Below are positions 8,847 to 63,526 of a DNA stretch of 64,000 nt, piece after piece. Each line of letters starts with the position of its first letter. The first letter of the stretch is position 1. A program made the translations under genes and the position numbers. The notes beneath the pieces are model-generated. The model saw nothing but the letters and a program-made list of their open reading frames with translations, was not told where the DNA came from and ran no database searches. The stretch spans positions 254,156-318,155 of the forward strand of contig MU004194.1 of the NCBI GenBank assembly GCA_010093605.1, in the 5' to 3' direction. Source of the DNA: Lophium mytilinum (lineage: Eukaryota).

Positions 8847-9364
8847 AGTGCGTGTTTGTATTTGTTCGGGCTCTGGTGGGGGTGGTGGAGTTGGAGTTGG
8901 AGTGGCGGCGTTGACTGCAATCCGCGGGGGAAGAGTCTTGGTATGCTTGAGATGGGGCGGCAGGCGGGTTCAATTCTCCGGCACACTCTTGAGAAAGCTG
9001 TGTTTGGTCGTTGAAGAATGGCTCTGGGCAGTGTGTGTCTAGTGGGGAAGTGCAGCTGCATCCTGACTCACCAATGATTCTGAGGTCAAAATTTGTCGCA
9101 GTCACCAAGCGAGTTGCACGTCGAAGCACCCCTGCACTGCCCTTGGGGGTATTTATTTATACCCACGGACCACTAAGTGTAGATTTACCAGTTCGAAGAA
9201 GACATTCTTTTCTGATTGTACGCTAACTATTTGTTCTCTTGCCAAAGGGTGCCTGTGCTGATACGGTAGACGAAAACGCTCACGTTGCCAATGCAAGCAA
9301 ATCTACCAGCTCTAACTGAGACTTTTCAAATGCAGACTGGCAGAATCCAGTCACAAGAGCCTCC

Positions 9365-10793
<1,429 letters not shown>

Positions 10794-11063
10794 GATTGCA
10801 ATTGGAGTGGAGGATTTGCGCGAGGTTTGTGGTGTTGGGCTGCGCTGCGGAAGATGCAAGCTTATGGACAGTCTGTCCAGACGTTGACGCTTGGATATAA
10901 AAACGAGAATGCAGGGCGCATGCAAGCAAAGCCCTGTGGCGGGGGGTTGTGCAGGGCGGATACGCTTCCCCAACAGGCCAAGTGTATGTCTCAGAGCAGT
11001 CTAGCCACATTCATTCACCTGACAAAAGACACGAGATGTGAGTTTTCAGTGACGCAGTGTAGA

Positions 11064-12520
11064 TCAGACTACTTTTTGGCTGGCCGGATATCTGCTAGCT
11101 GGGACACCTCCGACAGTGGTATCGAACAAGCAAAAATGGAGCCTGAGCAGCGGGATGTCTAGGTGCCCAAGTTTAGGTCCACGCCGTATAGATCGGACTA
11201 CCTTTTTCCTGGACGGTATCCTAGTAGTAAGGCCACTCCTGACAGTGGTGTCAAGCAAGCAAGAATGGAGCCTGGGTAGTAGTATATCTAGGTGCCTAAG
11301 GTTAGGTTCCTGATGTTGTATTTAGACTACCCTTTTCCTGGATGTTATGCTGGTAGCTGGACCTCTCCTGACAGTGGTGTCGAGCAAGCAAGATCGAAGC
11401 CTAATCAGTAGTATATCTAGGTGCCCAAACTTAGGTTCCTGCCGTCGAAAGTAGACTACCCTTTTCCTAAATGTTATACTGGCAGCTGGGCCTCTCCTCA
11501 CAGTGGTGTCGAGCAAGCAGGCAAGAAGCCTAAGCACACCCATTCAGCACTACTGGGTTTCCAGGACTCCAAGCTCAATCTAAATGTTGTGCCATTGGAA
11601 GCCGGACGACGCTTTGACTGGTCAGTAAGTTGCTAGCCGGGCTCCTCCTTACAGTGGCGTCGAACGAGCAAGATTGGAGCTTGAGCAGTGGTATATCTTG
11701 TCAACGTGCCTGAGCATATGAACTTCGACGTCTTTAGCGACTGTAAAAGTTAATGCATTGGGAATTGGACTTCTTCTTGACGAGCACGCACTCTACTAGC
11801 TAGACTACTCCATACAGTGCCAAGAAGAAAGCAAATTTAGGGGCTTCTTGTGCTAAATTAACCTACTTGCCTAAGTATACAAGTTTTTATGTCCTGGACG
11901 GATCTAAAGGTCAATGCATTGGGAATTGGACCACCTTTTGACTGGCAAGCACTCTGTTGGCTAAACTACTCCATACAGTGTCAAGAAGAAAGCAAAGTTA
12001 TAGCTTTCCTACGCTAAGCTGTGACGATGTGCCTAAGCTTATGAGATTTTGCGTCCTGGACGGATGCAAAGGTCAATGCCTTGAGGACTGAACTACCTCT
12101 TGACTAGCAAGCAACATCCTAGCTAGACCACTCCATACAGTGTCAAGAAGAACGAAAAGTAATAGCTTTTTTGTGCTAAATTGTGACTATGTACCTAAGC
12201 TTATGAGATTTACCTCCTGGACGGATGTAAAGGTCAATGCTTTGAGAATTGAACTACCTCTTGACTAGCAAGCAATATCCTAGCTGGGCTACTCCCTGCA
12301 GCGGTACCGAGCGAGCAAAAGCGAGGCGAGAACGGTAATATATACCTCTGAATGTCTCTGACTTCTCAATTTTGGGTCCTCGGAGTGTGTTTAGATTGCT
12401 GCAGTAGATATCAGACTTCCTGTTGATTGCTCGGCCGCATACTCGCTGGGCCACTCCTTGCAGTGGTGTCGAGCGAGCAAGAGCTAAGCCTAAACAGTGA
12501 TATATGCGGGTGCTTGCGCA
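11064..12520. repeat. Diverged tandem array of 10 units sharing a ~90 bp core; period 129 bp then ~162 bp
   Basis: Core anchor (A/G)CAG(T/C)G at 11113, 11242, 11371, 11500, 11651, 11814, 11975, 12137, 12298, 12460; consensus approx. GACTACC..TTGACTGG-N~10-TAGCTGGGCCACTCCTNACAGTGGTGTCGAGCAAGCAAG. Confidence 0.9.
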
Positions 12521-12839
12521 TGATACGTGGATTGGCAGCAATTTTGGCGTCTTTAATGGACCCTGGGGATGCAGGAAATACGCCGGCGCAAGGAGTCGCT
12601 GCAGGTGAAGTGGCGTAGATCCATCACGTGATCTGGAATTCCTCGGCGCGCAACAAAACATCCCCAGACGCGCCAGGTTAGACTGCCCTCTCGAACAAAC
12701 AACTGCCATCTCTCCATCCCAGCGCGCGTTGACATAAAGCGCCGCTTCATCCCCGCCTTCCATAATATGCCCTCCAGCTTTCTCTGTGCGCACGCCCAAC
12801 GAGAAAGACCCTGATTTTGGGGCGCGGAAAACGTCGCAG

Positions 12840-13390
12840 GTACGTGCCAGTTGATACGGAGCAGCGTGCCCTTCCTATTGTGCGCCTATTGTCACCACTT
12901 CACCTGTCAAGCCTATTGCCCGGTTGTTCACCGCCCCCACTGCTATTGTCCGATTGTTCCTATTGTGATAGCTTTCTATTGTGATAGCTTTCTACTTAAA
13001 CTCACCTCTTACCCAGTTTCTTCCTTCTTCAACCTTCCCCAAATCCTCCTTCTCTTCATCACTCCGTCACAGCACTCCCGCACTCCTAGTAGCACTCCAT
13101 AACACCACATCCTGTAAGTCCCCACAGTCGCATCCATCTTTCCAATTCTGTCGCGACTAGCGTCTGAACTAGACTGCCCCATCTCTACCCTTCTCGTCAC
13201 ATCCTGAATTCCATCGCGTTGTCGTTCGGTCTCGATTGGCGTCTGATTTAGACGGCCTCGACTTGACCATCCTCATCACCATGTCATCTCCTTCACGTCA
13301 TCTCCTTCACGTCATCAATTGTACCTGCGTTCCGACTCAATTGCACCCCACATGACACCGTCTGAAGGACCCCAGCTAACTTGCTCATAG
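12840..13390 (+). other. Probable 5'-UTR intron of the SUN-domain gene
   Basis: Donor CAG|GTACGT at 12840; branch site GCTAAC at 13375; acceptor TAG at 13390, 12 nt before the ATG at 13403. Confidence 0.5.
12875..12991 (+). promoter_or_regulatory. Cluster of CTATTGT motifs (HMG-box-like sites)
   Basis: CTATTGT at 12875, 12886, 12943, 12960, 12976 and CTATTGC at 12913. Confidence 0.4.
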
Positions 13391-13402
13391 CCACACAACG
13401 CA

Positions 13403-15292
13403 ATGGCTTCCAACACCCCATTCAGGCGCTCGAGCAGACTCGCATCAGCAACCCCGGCTCCAGCGAGGTCGGGAGCTGGTTCCACGGCTGGCTCCGTGAA
13501 CCAGAGCATCGCAGGCAGCAGAGCGACCCCGGGTCGCACCACCGGGGGGCGGGCTGGCCAACTGCCAAAGGTGGCAGTGAACCGCTCACACGCGTACGGA
13601 TCTGCGGGCCATGCCCGCCACGCGGAGGACATTGCTCCTCCGACGACCTCGTTCGACCAAGCCTTCGCGGCACACCGTACTTCGGCCATCGAACGTGACG
13701 TCTCTGCGGAGGGTTCGAGCTCCTCCAGTGCTTCCTCGAGGAGCCCCCAGCGCAGCCAGATCGACGGCCGGCGCAGCCAGATTCGCGAGCTGTCGCCAAC
13801 CCAGTCCGATCTCGCCACCCCTTTCGAGCAAACAACGCTCATTGACTCTTCAAAGAGTTTCGGTGTCATTCACGAGGCTGGCCTACACGCAGAGGCCAGC
13901 AATGGCACCATTCACGACCGCCATAGCCCAGCTTCTGACACGACGTCTCGAGCTGAAGCCACCCCTTCCTTCCCTCGCGTAGTCCTACGTGTCATCAAGA
14001 ACAACTGGCTCGACGTCCTCAAGGCTGTGGTTATGTTTGTCGGCTTCCTCTCCTTCGTCACCTTCTTCTACCACCTCGTCACCTCTACTTCCATCAAATC
14101 CAGCCCTATCACAGGCGCTGGTGACGCTGTGAGCTCTCAGCTCACCAGCACGTGGGACTACGTCAAAAATAGCGTCTCTTTCGGCTCTTCCGGTTCCTCG
14201 GACCTCTACCCCAGGGTCGTCAGTCTTGAGGGTACCGTCCACGACATCCAGCAACACCTCCCAGACCACGTCGTCGTGCAAGTCGATCAATCCACCGGCA
14301 AGCCTGTCATCAGCGATACCTTCTGGCGAGCTCTTCGCAGCAAGTTCTCACAGAAGGGCTTGTTCAACGTCGCCGACAAAGATATCGAATGGAAGGAATT
14401 CCTCGTCAACAACGCCCGGAAAATCGAGACTGCTATTGGCAACGACCGCAAGAAACTCCTGGCACACTTCGACAACACCTTCGTCTTGGCACGAAAGCAC
14501 CACCAGGTGTTGACCCGGGACGAGTTCGCGGAGCTAATGCAGAAAGACTACCTGGCGATGTCCGCTCGAGTTGAGCAGGAGGTCGAGCGAGTAGCTAAGC
14601 AGATCGGTACCGTCGCGATTCGCCAACAAATCAGACTCGAGTCTCTCGCCTACGCAAATCTTCTCTTCAACAGCGAACTCTCTCTTAAGACTGTCAACTT
14701 CTTCTCCCCAGGACTCGGTGCGAAAATCAACCCACGTCTCACCTCGCCCACTTTGTCGAAGGACATCACTTGGAAAGCTGCCGCCTTCAAGCTATTCTTC
14801 TGGGCACCCCCACGCAACGCACCCATGACTGCTCTCGAGCGTTGGGAAGAGGCGTCCGACTGTTGGTGCACGGCAGCCAGCTCCACCAAGCAGTCCCAAC
14901 TAGCAGTCCAGATGGCGCTCCCGATCTTTCCCACCAGAGTCACTATTGAGAACATCCCGAAGGAGGGTACCCTCAACTGGAAATCGGCACCGAAGGATGT
15001 TGAACTGTGGGTCGAGATTGACGATCCTGACAAACGTGAAGCAGTCGAGATCTCGTTCAACGAGCTTCATAAGCCTTGCCGGGGATCTGGTCCAGGATCA
15101 AAGTATGTCTGCATCGGCAGCATGATGTACGATATTCACGGCCCAAACCACGTTCAGACCTTCGACCTGGAACTCGATCTCAAGGCTCATGACGTTGAAG
15201 TTAAGAACGCGATCGTTCGAGTGATCGAGACCTGGGGCAGCGATTACACTTGTGTCTATCGCATCCGCATGCATGGCGAGCATTTGGAATAG
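13403..15292 (+). CDS. SUN-domain inner nuclear membrane protein (Sad1/Mps3/UNC-84 family, LINC complex)
   Basis: Single 629 aa ORF: disordered N-terminus, one TM (LKAVVMFVGFLSFVTFFYHLV), coiled coil, SUN domain (NFFSPGLGA, WEEASDCWC, SAPKDVELW, WGSDYTCVYRIRMHG). Confidence 0.88.
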   Translation: MASNTPFRRSSRLASATPAPARSGAGSTAGSVNQSIAGSRATPGRTTGGRAGQLPKVAVNRSHAYGSAGHARHAEDIAPPTTSFDQAFAAHRTSAIERDVSAEGSSSSSASSRSPQRSQIDGRRSQIRELSPTQSDLATPFEQTTLIDSSKSFGVIHEAGLHAEASNGTIHDRHSPASDTTSRAEATPSFPRVVLRVIKNNWLDVLKAVVMFVGFLSFVTFFYHLVTSTSIKSSPITGAGDAVSSQLTSTWDYVKNSVSFGSSGSSDLYPRVVSLEGTVHDIQQHLPDHVVVQVDQSTGKPVISDTFWRALRSKFSQKGLFNVADKDIEWKEFLVNNARKIETAIGNDRKKLLAHFDNTFVLARKHHQVLTRDEFAELMQKDYLAMSARVEQEVERVAKQIGTVAIRQQIRLESLAYANLLFNSELSLKTVNFFSPGLGAKINPRLTSPTLSKDITWKAAAFKLFFWAPPRNAPMTALERWEEASDCWCTAASSTKQSQLAVQMALPIFPTRVTIENIPKEGTLNWKSAPKDVELWVEIDDPDKREAVEISFNELHKPCRGSGPGSKYVCIGSMMYDIHGPNHVQTFDLELDLKAHDVEVKNAIVRVIETWGSDYTCVYRIRMHGEHLE

Positions 15293-21455: not shown

Positions 21456-22384
21456 TTCCTTGGCTGGAGTGCTCTGGTTCAACAAGTGATTAGTTTCTAA
21501 GATTTGTAAGAGCCTGACAGAGGACTTCGAAGTATGAACGCGATATTAAGATGAATCCTGAACATTCTTCAACGCGCTAAAGGCGTCTTATCGGAACTCA
21601 ATGACATTGAAGCTGACCAACATCGCTAAGGAGTTGGGGCCATCGTTGACTCTGGAACTCTTTGGGAGATGGAAAAAGACAGCCTTTCAGATCTACATTC
21701 GTAGATAAGGTTACAGACTTGACATGGAGAGGGAATTGAGAGGTGTGCTGGCGAGAGTGGTTGCGAAAGTTGTGCTGGGAGTGGAAGTACTATATGTCCG
21801 TGAAGTTGAAAGAAGAGTGAGAGCAGCTTATCCTTACTCAAATGTACTTTCGATATTATAAAGAAAACCCTTGCGGGAAATTGGGCGATTAACGTCTTAC
21901 TTAGGAAGAAGGTTGTTGGTGCGAAACCGGTGTCCCTCACTTTCTATGGCGGTACATGAAATACCCTACTGGGCACATTTCATCACGCTCTGCCTCCACG
22001 AACCTCACGCGTCCTTCGAACACTCCACGCTGAGCATGAAAACAGTGGCACATCTCTCAAACAGCCTGTCTCGTGCACACTTGCTCGCCACTGCTTGTAG
22101 TGCCCTACTGAGTTTTCACATGGTCTAAATTGAACAGTACGCATGCATCACGTCTTGTTTGAAACGGGAGTGCCACCTTTTTTATGCCTCGCGTGCACTC
22201 AGAAGTTGATCTAAATGAGATAGCTCCCGTCACCTCGTTCCTGTGTCCAGCATGTAGGCTCGTCCTCGGTATGGGGTTACGTGCAGACCTTCCGGCGAGT
22301 GCTAGTCTACGCTATGATATTCTATCTAGAAAACTTTCCTCTATTTTCCATGGCCACAATACCTTCTCTAATCCTCTTCTTCTT

Positions 22385-60700: not shown

Positions 60701-63526
60701 ATGATTGTTGCCCTGCACTCACCCTTCAGTCGATACCTACCATATATTGTGGGTTTCATACTGCAATCAATGTCCAATCCGGGTAAAATTAGAAGCCAAA
60801 GTTTGAAAAGCCTAGGGATGCTTATGGAGAAGAACCCGAGAATTCTGAACGAACGCATACTCGAAAAAATAACCGACTCTTTGACGGATGTCGGGGCTCA
60901 AGTTCGAGAATACTCACTACAGCTCCTCGACAAATGCCTGCGCTGGAACCCTGCGATCGAGACCCAATGCACATTGAAGATAATTCTCACAACGTACGAC
61001 CCGAGTCCCAAGATCAAGAAGAAGGCGATGGAGATTTTAAAGGGCATATACCTGCGCAATGAGACGCCAACTGTCAAAACCTCTATCGCGGATGCGCTGT
61101 TGAAAAAAATTCAAGATACAGACGAGGATGTCTCGAAGGAGGCTTGCAATTTGCTCGCAGGCATCTGGATTGCACCCTACTATGAGGTTGCAACTTCCGC
61201 AGACGTAAAGCTCCAACTGGCCCTTCGCGCTCAAGTGTCACTCATCATTCGGACGGTACGGACCCAACAGCAGTCTGGTGTGCGCCTGGAAGAATTACTG
61301 CGGCACATTCTTACCGATGATCCAAGATCAGCTGACCCGAACTTTCGTGTTTGCAAAAGCATGGTGGCCGAACTGTTTGAAGGCGTGATCGACAATGCCG
61401 TCCTCCCTGATAAGCCGGAACAATGGTGGATTGTGGAGACTCTTGCGGCCTTTGCGCACGCGAGTGGCAAGCTTTTCACAGTGGAGCAAATAGTGACGCT
61501 ACAGACTTTTACAAAGGACGTCAAAGACTCTAACGATTTGCGGACTCTGCGGGCCGTTATGGTTGTGTTCCGTCACGTCCTTCCACTCCACAGCATTTAC
61601 CCGGATAACTTTCTTCCCACTGTCAGAAGTGCCCTACAACAATCTCTAGGGAAAATGGGTAATCAGGAGATCAACGAGTGTGCTCAATGTTTCGCCATTA
61701 TTGACGGAATCTTGAAGGAGGAAGGTCAGAGACCATTTAGTACCATTATGCCCATGTTGAGGCAGGTTTTGAACATAGCGAATAAGCCCCTCGACGAGGC
61801 CAATCTTTCCAAACGGTTAGCCATCATTGGCTACTTCGGGAAACACTGTAATCTCGAGCATCGAATCGAGGACGTCAAAAAGAACGTCCCGGCTTTGAAA
61901 TTCGAGACAGTCGCGGACCTCCTTGTCAACGTCCTGCTCCCCTTCACACTAGAGAAGCATCCAAAAGGCGTTCGTCGACAAGCTCTCGAAGGTGTGGCCA
62001 TGATTTGCCACAGCTTTCCAAAACAGTACGCCAGAGAGGACGTGAACAAGGCCTTCGAGCTTGTATTTGCAAACGAAGACATCGGTCTGAAGTCCAGCTT
62101 ACTAGACCATTTCCTGGATGTCTTTGCTCATGAAGAGAACCGGTCGAGCGTAGGAGAAGGCATTTTCGTCAATTCTATGAAGGCAGATGAGTTCGGCGGC
62201 GTGCCTCACAAACTTGCACGGAAATTTAGACGCCATGCCATCCAAATCGCTCTTACTTCAACCGGTCTTATAGCACTTCAAGCAGCCAAATTCATTGCAA
62301 GTAGCAATCGCCAAGGCCTTATCCTTCCGATAGAGTGCTTGCCGGCCCTGGTTGCTCTGGAGACGTCACCAGACCCAGCCATCGCCAATGTCGCGACCCA
62401 GGAACATCGGAATCTCTGGAAGAAGAACAGCGGGTTGGACAAAGAGTATATGGAGGGAGTGTCTCTTGCCTTTGATCATCATCGTAACATCATAAAGGAC
62501 GCTAAAGGAGCCAGCATCAACGTAAAAGAAGGAAAATCCTCTTTTGTTCCCAAGCTCCGTCTATGCTACGATGTTCTATGCAGCGGCGAGTCCAGACCGA
62601 GAAAGAAATTCCTTTCAAATCTAGTCGATCGGCTCAATTTTCAGCTCTCCAAACTCGATACCAGCGGCGTCGAACCACGGCCTTTGAACTATGCGCGCTT
62701 TTGTGCAGAGAATCTCGCCTTGTTTGATTACACTCGTGTGGAAGAGGTAGTGCTTGTCACTGACTGCTTGCACAACGTGGTCATTGCTACTGGGAGCCTA
62801 GTGGCACAGGAGATCGAGCCGGATATTTTAGGCAACGGTCTCGACATTGAGCCCATCCAGCAAGAAGGAACAGCTCTAGCTACCACTCGGTATTCTAGCC
62901 TCGCGCACGATCCGAGTGCTCCCAATGATCTCACACCGACCGAAAAGAGCCTGCCTTCGAAGCCTCCGGTAAAGCCAATCGACGAGTCTCGGCTGCGCCA
63001 TCTCACCGTAGCCAGCATGATACTCACGCTCATGTGGGAGACGAAGAAATTCTTACGTCATTACTGGAGCCTTGATCGTAGCAAGTCCAGCGCCAAAATG
63101 ACGCCCAAAGAGCTCAACAGCCGGCCTACTAAAGCCACTTTCAGCACTCCTGATAAACACCTGCAGCGTATCGCAGAGATCATGTCTTCGCTCGACGACA
63201 CGGACGCCATGCTGGCGCGGTGCAAAGCCTTTGCCGACTTGATTTCCCACGACGACGAAGCCAAAAACAAGTCAGACGTCGAGGATGACGGGCTGCTAGG
63301 TCGGGTAGCAGATGGCTACGACACCCCTGTTGGCAGCGGAGACGAGGACAACGCCAGCAATCCGCCCAGTGGCAGCGGTAGGGGTCGCAAGAGGAAGAGT
63401 TCGTTCCCTGCTGGAGGAACGCCGAGGAAGAGGAAGACCGGCGGGACTGGAAAGCCGAGGGGACGACCGCGGAAGTCGAGGGGTGGCTCAGGGAGCACGC
63501 CTGACGCAGACGATGGGTGGGATTGA
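57784..63526 (+). CDS. SCC2: Cohesin loader Scc2/Mis4/NIPBL
   Basis: PTVDQAFQHSPLTSIVPF N-terminus; IQLVSALLMRLVQ; PFRNLMDIFTEDFLNVLGSPEWPAA; HEAT repeats; CLPALVALETSP; RFCAENLALFDY; ~1800 aa over five exons. Confidence 0.9.

Follow-up and report, generated by a model that had tools for sequence, protein, structure and literature searches.

A mosaic tandem array derived from a Tc1/mariner-type MITE in Lophium mytilinum, and the ladder of unit lengths in its family

The region between the divergent promoters of GAL10 and a SUN-domain gene, upstream of both, holds ten tandem copies of a short core separated by linkers of several kinds. What such an array is, and whether its position beside a SUN gene matters, is the question raised by this locus. 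A preliminary description, made from the letters of the window (the whole stretch of DNA analysed, 64,000 nucleotides), had proposed selection on a multivalent protein-binding platform or a repeated ncRNA module, with a speculative role in chromosome tethering or SUN regulation.

The array and its neighbouring genes

Core anchoring placed the ten cores at 11107, 11236, 11365, 11494, 11645, 11808, 11969, 12131, 12292 and 12454, and exactly reproduced the spacings first reported (129, 129, 129, 151, 163, 161, 162, 161 and 162 bp). Expressed in helical turns these are 12, 12, 12, 14, 15, 15, 15, 15 and 15. The array is made up of the internal right half of a 227-bp Tc1/mariner-type MITE together with remnants of its right terminal inverted repeat (TIR). 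Its units were matched by a profile built from 22 TIR-selected copies from elsewhere in the genome, and lie mostly at positions 80-218 of the 231 in that model. The features of the region are listed below, in window coordinates.

9300..10793, minus strand: GAL10 (UDP-glucose 4-epimerase-like), spliced, ATG at 10793, Pfam Epimerase; left neighbour, outside the array (9300 is the edge of the stretch examined)
11050..12507, plus strand: mosaic tandem array of ten MITE-derived units; the TIR-built profile matches 10/10 units (E 4.9e-15 to 7.9e-6)
11050..11169, plus strand: unit 1, model 93-210 of 231; next core at 129 bp, 12 turns
11166..11298, plus strand: unit 2, model 80-210; 129 bp, 12 turns; CCACT-N6-AGTGG perfect
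11322..11435, plus strand: unit 3, model 107-218, including part of the right TIR; 129 bp, 12 turns
11433..11522, plus strand: core of unit 4, model 89-178; 151 bp, 14 turns
11518..11720, plus strand: linker 4 and unit 5, model 9-218; 163 bp, 15 turns
11742..12205, plus strand: units 6-8, model 82-218; 161, 162 and 161 bp, 15 turns each
12224..12327, plus strand: unit 9, model 82-185; 162 bp, 15 turns
12389..12507, plus strand: unit 10, model 85-201; CCACT-N6-AGTGG perfect
12809..15292, plus strand: SUN-domain gene, Pfam Sad1_UNC; right neighbour, outside the array

Sub-arrays of 129 bp and 161 bp were detected by TRF. Pairwise identity among the ten cores is 50-87%, and units 6-8 have a 3-bp core deletion in common. 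Several details of the preliminary description were confirmed: the CCACT-N6-AGTGG inverted repeat is perfect in units 2 and 10 only, and there is no continuous ORF, each of the six frames of 11060-12520 containing 23-31 stops. The linker classes were also recovered (linkers 1-3 alike at 71-75%, linkers 5-8 at 60-84%, linkers 4 and 9 at 56% or less to any other), but these types are not unrelated, since six of the nine linkers show local matches to MITE segments (uncorrected p < 0.05; 300 shuffles, two tests per linker), the exceptions being linkers 2, 6 and 8. The matches fall on the right end or the left part of the MITE; linker 4 resembles the left part (p = 0.007, uncorrected), and over 110 bp linker 5 and a unit at another locus (L129) are 71% alike. 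Terminal repeats had been reported as lacking, which is correct for the ends of the array itself, where neither TIR gives a profile match, no intact TA was found and the sequence is decayed, but right-TIR remnants (model to 210-218 of 231) lie inside several linkers. The window array is a derivative of the MITE and not itself an intact one. Elsewhere in the window, a fragment of the left part of the MITE occurs at 22073-22142 (model 23-98, E 3.6e-5), and weaker matches are found at 2455-2484 and 61617-61661.

GAL10 has introns at 9772-9822, about 10273-10326 and 10563-10764, which are skipped in contigs. The SUN gene consists of a short 5′ exon to near 12836 and a main ORF at 13403-15292, with GT..AG joints from about 12836 in sequencing run X3, and its protein is 83% identical to one of Mytilinidion resinicola. 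In the same run, one GT donor is joined both to 13014 and to 13389 (window 12836-13389), and these two 3′ joints suggest alternative splicing of the 5′ UTR.

A SUN- or LINC-specific role of the array was not borne out. The repeat has hundreds of dispersed copies and originates from a TIR transposon, and two relatives have no such array in the orthologous interval. In both of these (metagenome contigs L233 and L234), the order NOP53-ARC1-GAL10-SUN is kept and the GAL10-SUN gap has no core or MITE match, measuring about 820-835 bp from ATG to ATG vs 2610 bp here; the two are distant (SUN 43-44% identical) and, being nearly identical to each other, count as one comparison. Frames flanking other arrays had Pfam matches in 9 of 20 cases, all different (methyltransferase, ankyrin, G-patch, GFA, MoaC, kinase, Zn cluster, NCBP3 and RRM), and the arrays lie either 5′ or 3′ of these genes. 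As arrays adjoin unrelated genes, and the syntenic gap of the two relatives is without one, no SUN-specific role is supported.

The parent MITE family and its arrays

Dispersed copies of the repeat are abundant in the genome. A 17-letter core pattern, with up to one mismatch, gave 615 matches against 44 for the reversed pattern used as control; a TIR pattern gave 218 (some possibly right TIRs) and an inner left motif 181, both against 0 for the controls. With the whole window array as query, 45 matches were found in its own genome, on many contigs. Counts given here are pattern totals of the 43.4-Mb assembly, or come from 232 loci, some of them overlapping, that were selected on matches to the core, the TIR, the inner motif or a transposase.

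Solo copies are elements of 227 or 214 bp with 28-bp TIRs starting CAGT and with TA flanks. Single-core elements span 214-229 bp, with modes at 227 (12/29) and 214 (8/29). In 60 loci picked out by the TIR or the left motif, 42 elements have a left TIR, and the right TIR is also present in 33 of them. TA occurs on both sides of 23 of these 33 two-TIR elements, most of which were selected by a pattern containing TA; in eight elements selected by the inner motif it flanks the left end in seven and the right end in six. The consensus ends match at 27/30 positions, TA included, and beside the left TIR lies an inverted copy (17/21 match) of a 23-bp block within the core. Short (under 500 bp), uniform in length, non-coding, bearing TIRs and TA and dispersed in high copy number, the solo family is, by these sequence features, an uncatalogued Tc1/mariner-type MITE, its TA target-site duplication being judged from the flanks of the copies. 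Helitron ends, considered earlier, were abandoned on sight of the TIRs and TA.

A search for an autonomous partner was negative: this TIR was found in 0/14 DDE_3 and 0/10 DDE_1 loci, covering the best-scoring candidates with flanks of about 1.5 kb. One DDE_1 match is free of stops and sits in a 3.1-kb element whose inverted ends, of 46 bp, are not related to the MITE (L238, G000:C23:242771-246280), while the other nine hold stops, mostly TAG or TAA as after RIP. Three DDE_3 elements of about 1.3-1.5 kb (L070, L074 and L081) have inverted ends of 41-69 bp that are 91-100% complementary, and represent a different family. Differences among 30 solo MITE copies are rich in transitions (C>T plus G>A, 140/301) with a mild CpA bias (50/140), a pattern unlike that of the heavily RIP-like long transposons.

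Many of the sampled copies hold more than one core. Among 220 core clusters, a sample enriched by the way loci were chosen, 129 are single, 91 have at least two cores and 23 at least five. Two-core elements of 355-384 bp exist that are bounded by TIRs and TA. Two junction types recur, one at L047, L015, L036 and L099, the other at L048, L051, L101 and L131. An 11-core array (L250, G000:C17:977000-981500) opens with TA and a left TIR; it amounts to a compound MITE of about 1.8 kb, its right end being decayed. The longest member seen (L248, G000:C6:166000-172500) is an array of about 4.2 kb with 36 core hits, mostly in 107-108-bp units (10 turns), and another (L249) has 22 core hits. At least two turn classes are mixed in 23 arrays, and units of different subfamilies are mixed in L063 and L131. 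Direct left-motif pairs under 300 bp number 13, all at least 205 bp apart, and none is a tandem duplication of the left part alone. Taken with the profile matches, these data leave very little doubt that the window array is old, without TIRs and formed by tandem expansion of the MITE's inner right half, the MITE being a non-autonomous Tc1/mariner-type element that is abundant in this Dothideomycete.

Other arrangements of whole elements were also seen. At L034/L035 (G000:C4:1115364-1116200), three whole MITEs stand in a row with about 40-60 bp of unrelated DNA between them (spacings 291 and 270). Head-to-tail dimers of whole elements, spaced 224-227 bp, occur at L063, L141, L021, L104 and L135, and their joints are without TA and 1-2 terminal bases short. 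At L251 (G000:C2:1762000-1763500), two copies, one of them truncated, adjoin each other back to back through their left parts.

The claim that the core is kept above the linkers fails for the window array, where same-class neighbours differ by 0.26 in the core and 0.28 in the linkers, but it holds across the family, the 23-bp block being less diverged than the linker in 26/27 loci. In 108 pairs of neighbouring same-class units from 29 loci, mismatch is 0.254 in this block, as against 0.335 for linkers and 0.364 for the spacer next to it, values in which core conservation is somewhat inflated by weight-matrix anchoring and by seeding with core patterns. Single core positions fall to 0.07-0.16 vs about 0.33, and the two blocks flanking the 23 bp show no such excess. 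In 30 solo copies that were chosen without it, no inner part is better kept than this block. This conservation, and the inverted copy at the left TIR, suggest that the 23-bp core is a putative binding site.

Unit lengths and helical turns

Core-to-core distances in the family peak at 107-109, 129, 149-153, 159-164 and 171-174 bp, with minor peaks near 86, 118, 138, 205 and 226. A period of 10.75 bp (phase 0.3, R = 0.71) fitted the first 179 pairs best. Of the 239 spacings under 200 bp, 210 deviate by 2 bp or less from n x 10.75 + 0.3, against 38% of integers expected, and the remaining 29 are off phase (e.g., 133-136 and 142-146). When length classes are counted per locus, 91/106, from 69 loci, are within 2 bp of the ladder (38% expected). 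In loci fetched after the period had been fixed, the figure is 73 of 83 spacings under 200 bp, 26 of the 83 coming from the single array L153. The class means (107.6, 118.5, 129.0, 139.4, 150.9, 161.9 and 172.8) give a slope of 10.75 and an intercept of 0.4, and the five main peaks are at most 0.32 bp from multiples of 10.78 (null p = 0.001, counting those peaks alone). These statistics show that the length of a new unit is a whole number of helical turns, at about 10.75-10.8 bp per turn. The helical repeat of relaxed B-DNA is about 10.5 bp, and the array period of 10.75-10.9 bp exceeds both this value and the 10.2 bp of Paramecium IESs.

Units are not independent, as junction types are common to several loci. 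After single-linkage clustering of linkers, the phase test is significant at 70% and 62% identity (p = 0.0005) and not at 58% (p = 0.24, n = 12) or 55% (p = 0.70, n = 6), thresholds at which nearly everything is merged. The class of about 151 bp, on the other hand, has three or more junction registers (230 to 82, 206 to 57, and 212-219 to 65-70), and the same unit length from different junctions favours repeated origin. Nested insertion at an inner TA was rejected as the source of this class, since the junctions mostly lack TA and no left fragment lies upstream. An internal 11-bp subrepeat or microhomology was likewise rejected as the source of the ladder: autocorrelation in the younger subfamily, to which this check applies, gave p = 0.32, and 4-mer microhomology is equal on and off phase (0.51 vs 0.51). 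Duplications of other sequences in the sampled loci, a small, hand-filtered control set of 17, are in phase in six cases (R = 0.08).

The solo MITE itself is 21.1 turns long. Two-core elements of 384 bp measure 35.6 turns end to end, which is no whole number. Solo MITEs also drift little in length, so the sharp length peaks of arrays do not require ongoing selection, and compensating indels, considered as a sign of selection, are uninformative for the same reason. The helical ladder of unit lengths in this MITE family is well supported. The earlier idea of a kept spacing around a protein-bound core can stand at the level of the family, where both the ladder and the conserved block are seen, but not as a SUN-linked feature of the window array.

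Possible causes and comparison with known systems

Taken together, MITE origin, compound intermediates, the phase ladder and in-phase retention of a transposition-related core form the account that we consider probable, with some reserve. Internal duplications would have given rise to two-core compound MITEs that, with TIRs and TA retained, each spread as a single unit. Longer mosaic arrays may then have been built by more duplication, by unequal exchange and by exchange involving other copies, before they lost their ends and decayed. This route from MITE to mosaic array, by duplication and then exchange, is partly shown. The 23-bp core, with its inverted copy at the left TIR, would be a candidate site for the mobilising complex, either a secondary site for transposase or a site for a host cofactor, and duplications would be retained and multiplied only with the cores, and hence both ends, on one helix face. 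As a cause of the ladder, binding of the core by the mobilising complex, with only in-phase duplications kept while the element was mobile, is proposed tentatively, and we place its chances a little below even.

The protein bound might instead belong to the host. If the MITE core binds a host DNA-binding or chromatin protein, tandem in-phase copies could be kept at many loci as cooperative platforms, with no specificity for SUN. The lesser divergence of the core block than of the linkers between same-class neighbours (26/27 loci), the persistence of long, old, TIR-less arrays (L248 and L249) and the 23 arrays combining at least two turn classes are consistent with this, but the neighbouring genes are unrelated and have arrays 5′ or 3′ of them, the two relatives lack the array in the orthologous interval, and the window array shows no core conservation excess. 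Selection by the host seems unlikely on this evidence, and so, judged from sequence, does the suggestion that the arrays might be phased multivalent chromatin platforms, co-opted genome-wide from a fungal MITE and with whole turns (about 10.8 bp) under continuing selection at roughly at least 100 loci. A mechanistic bias would need no selection: excised MITE pieces could close into small circles or loops best at whole turns and recombine homologously into other copies, so that mosaic arrays in phase would result. A ladder phase of about zero, that is, whole multiples, fits such closure, as do the mixing of subfamilies within arrays (L063, L131) and the TA-less end-to-end dimers, which resemble circularised Tc1-family ends; Tc1-family ends joined in circularised form are described for Sleeping Beauty (PMC6943129). 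A general circle rule is unlikely, however, since the non-family duplications in the sampled loci are not phased (6/17). Closure would also leave the better-kept core unexplained and is at odds with the left part of the MITE never being tandemly duplicated alone (13 pairs, all at least 205 bp), and we regard it as rather doubtful.

The family could also be an ordinary satellite, whose few ancestral lengths happened to fall on the ladder and became widespread through transposition and recombination. Junction types common to several loci, a phase test that is not significant after aggressive clustering, and low indel drift, which preserves any starting length, would all agree with chance; but the five main peaks lie on multiples of 10.78 (p = 0.001), the ladder also accommodates the minor classes near 86, 118 and 205, and the same length arises from distinct junctions, so that this is very improbable. 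Least of all do the data favour a structured ncRNA in repeated copies or the decayed gene of a repeat protein, either of which would be most surprising. In run X3, guessed to be RNA from its spliced joints, three contigs match parts of the array exactly, at a depth of 4.5-6.6, although such contigs can neither rank expression nor exclude DNA, and those of runs X4 and X5 leave the array uncovered, which is no evidence against expression. Units 1-4 do hold a 43-codon register on the minus strand, its roughly 170 codons being broken by a single internal stop, but spacings of 151, 161 and 163 break the frame, the overlapping ORF has no Pfam match, and the parent element has TIRs and TA flanks. A protein-coding repeat, TAG read-through included, was rejected on the same frame breaks, the presence of all three stop types and the lack of a Pfam match. 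The ncRNA module proposed in the preliminary description did not find support: Rfam gave only two chance matches (E 1.2 and 1.9), and the RNAalifold consensus of the units reaches -1.35 kcal/mol, with 1/7 pairs doubly changed and without the CCACT hairpin. A ribozyme, snoRNA or 5S gene was set aside on the absence of an Rfam match and of a consensus fold. A run with another organism label (X6) yielded one low-depth 162-bp contig with a core-like stretch, corresponding to window 12445-12482, and family-like letters upstream of it.

The locus itself is ordinary, a decayed transposon-derived repeat. The family is of wider interest as a natural experiment on helical twist, in which dozens of independently located arrays with several junctions follow one 10.75-bp ladder. 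Such a ladder would show DNA geometry fixing the monomer length of a satellite at birth, and it bears on why satellite monomers have the lengths they do. No description of a helical ladder of MITE-derived unit lengths was found in the open-access literature searched. A 21-nt periodicity of fungal introner lengths was not found in the portion of PMC3609843 consulted.

The mimp (miniature impala) elements of Fusarium are MITEs of the Tc1/mariner superfamily (PMC5579170). The MITE described here resembles them, as presented in that source, in being non-coding and dispersed near genes, with TIRs starting CAGT, mimps being about 180-220 bp long. It differs in its 227-bp length, its inner inverted core, its tandem arrays and the failure to find an impala-like partner among 24 transposase loci. 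Identity with mimp was rejected, as the published 16-nt TIR pattern, compared by eye, departs after CAGTGA (PMC5579170).

For the arrays themselves, precedents are Tetris/TIR-220 of Drosophila virilis and Galileo, where internal tandem repeats of TIR transposons seed satellite-like arrays and have been proposed to add transposase-binding sites (PMC4079207). That account, in the sections available, makes no mention of phasing, and here, unlike in Tetris and Galileo, the repeats stem from a short MITE, their unit lengths are numerous and fall on a 10.75-bp ladder, and the arrays are mosaics found at dozens of loci rich in genes. Phasing is found in the IESs of Paramecium, short Tc1/mariner-derived elements whose lengths follow the helical repeat; this is read as a looping constraint and attributed to a transpososome-like complex (PMC3464196). 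As presented there, it is the length of an excised element that has the period, of 10.2 bp, and is selected for excision, whereas in this fungus it is the length of a tandem unit, with a period of about 10.75-10.9 bp. The proposal that the core is a site for the mobilising complex draws on both, Tetris and Galileo repeats being a precedent without phasing and Paramecium IES lengths one with it. Lastly, Bacillus has tandem repeats of constant length and variable sequence, of 20-21 and 52 nt, one class of which matches two helical turns (PMC8161180). As far as that source describes them, they are like the MITE arrays in that unit length is held while sequence drifts, and they differ in being bacterial, in having two lengths and not a ladder, and in that a transposon origin is not shown for them there.
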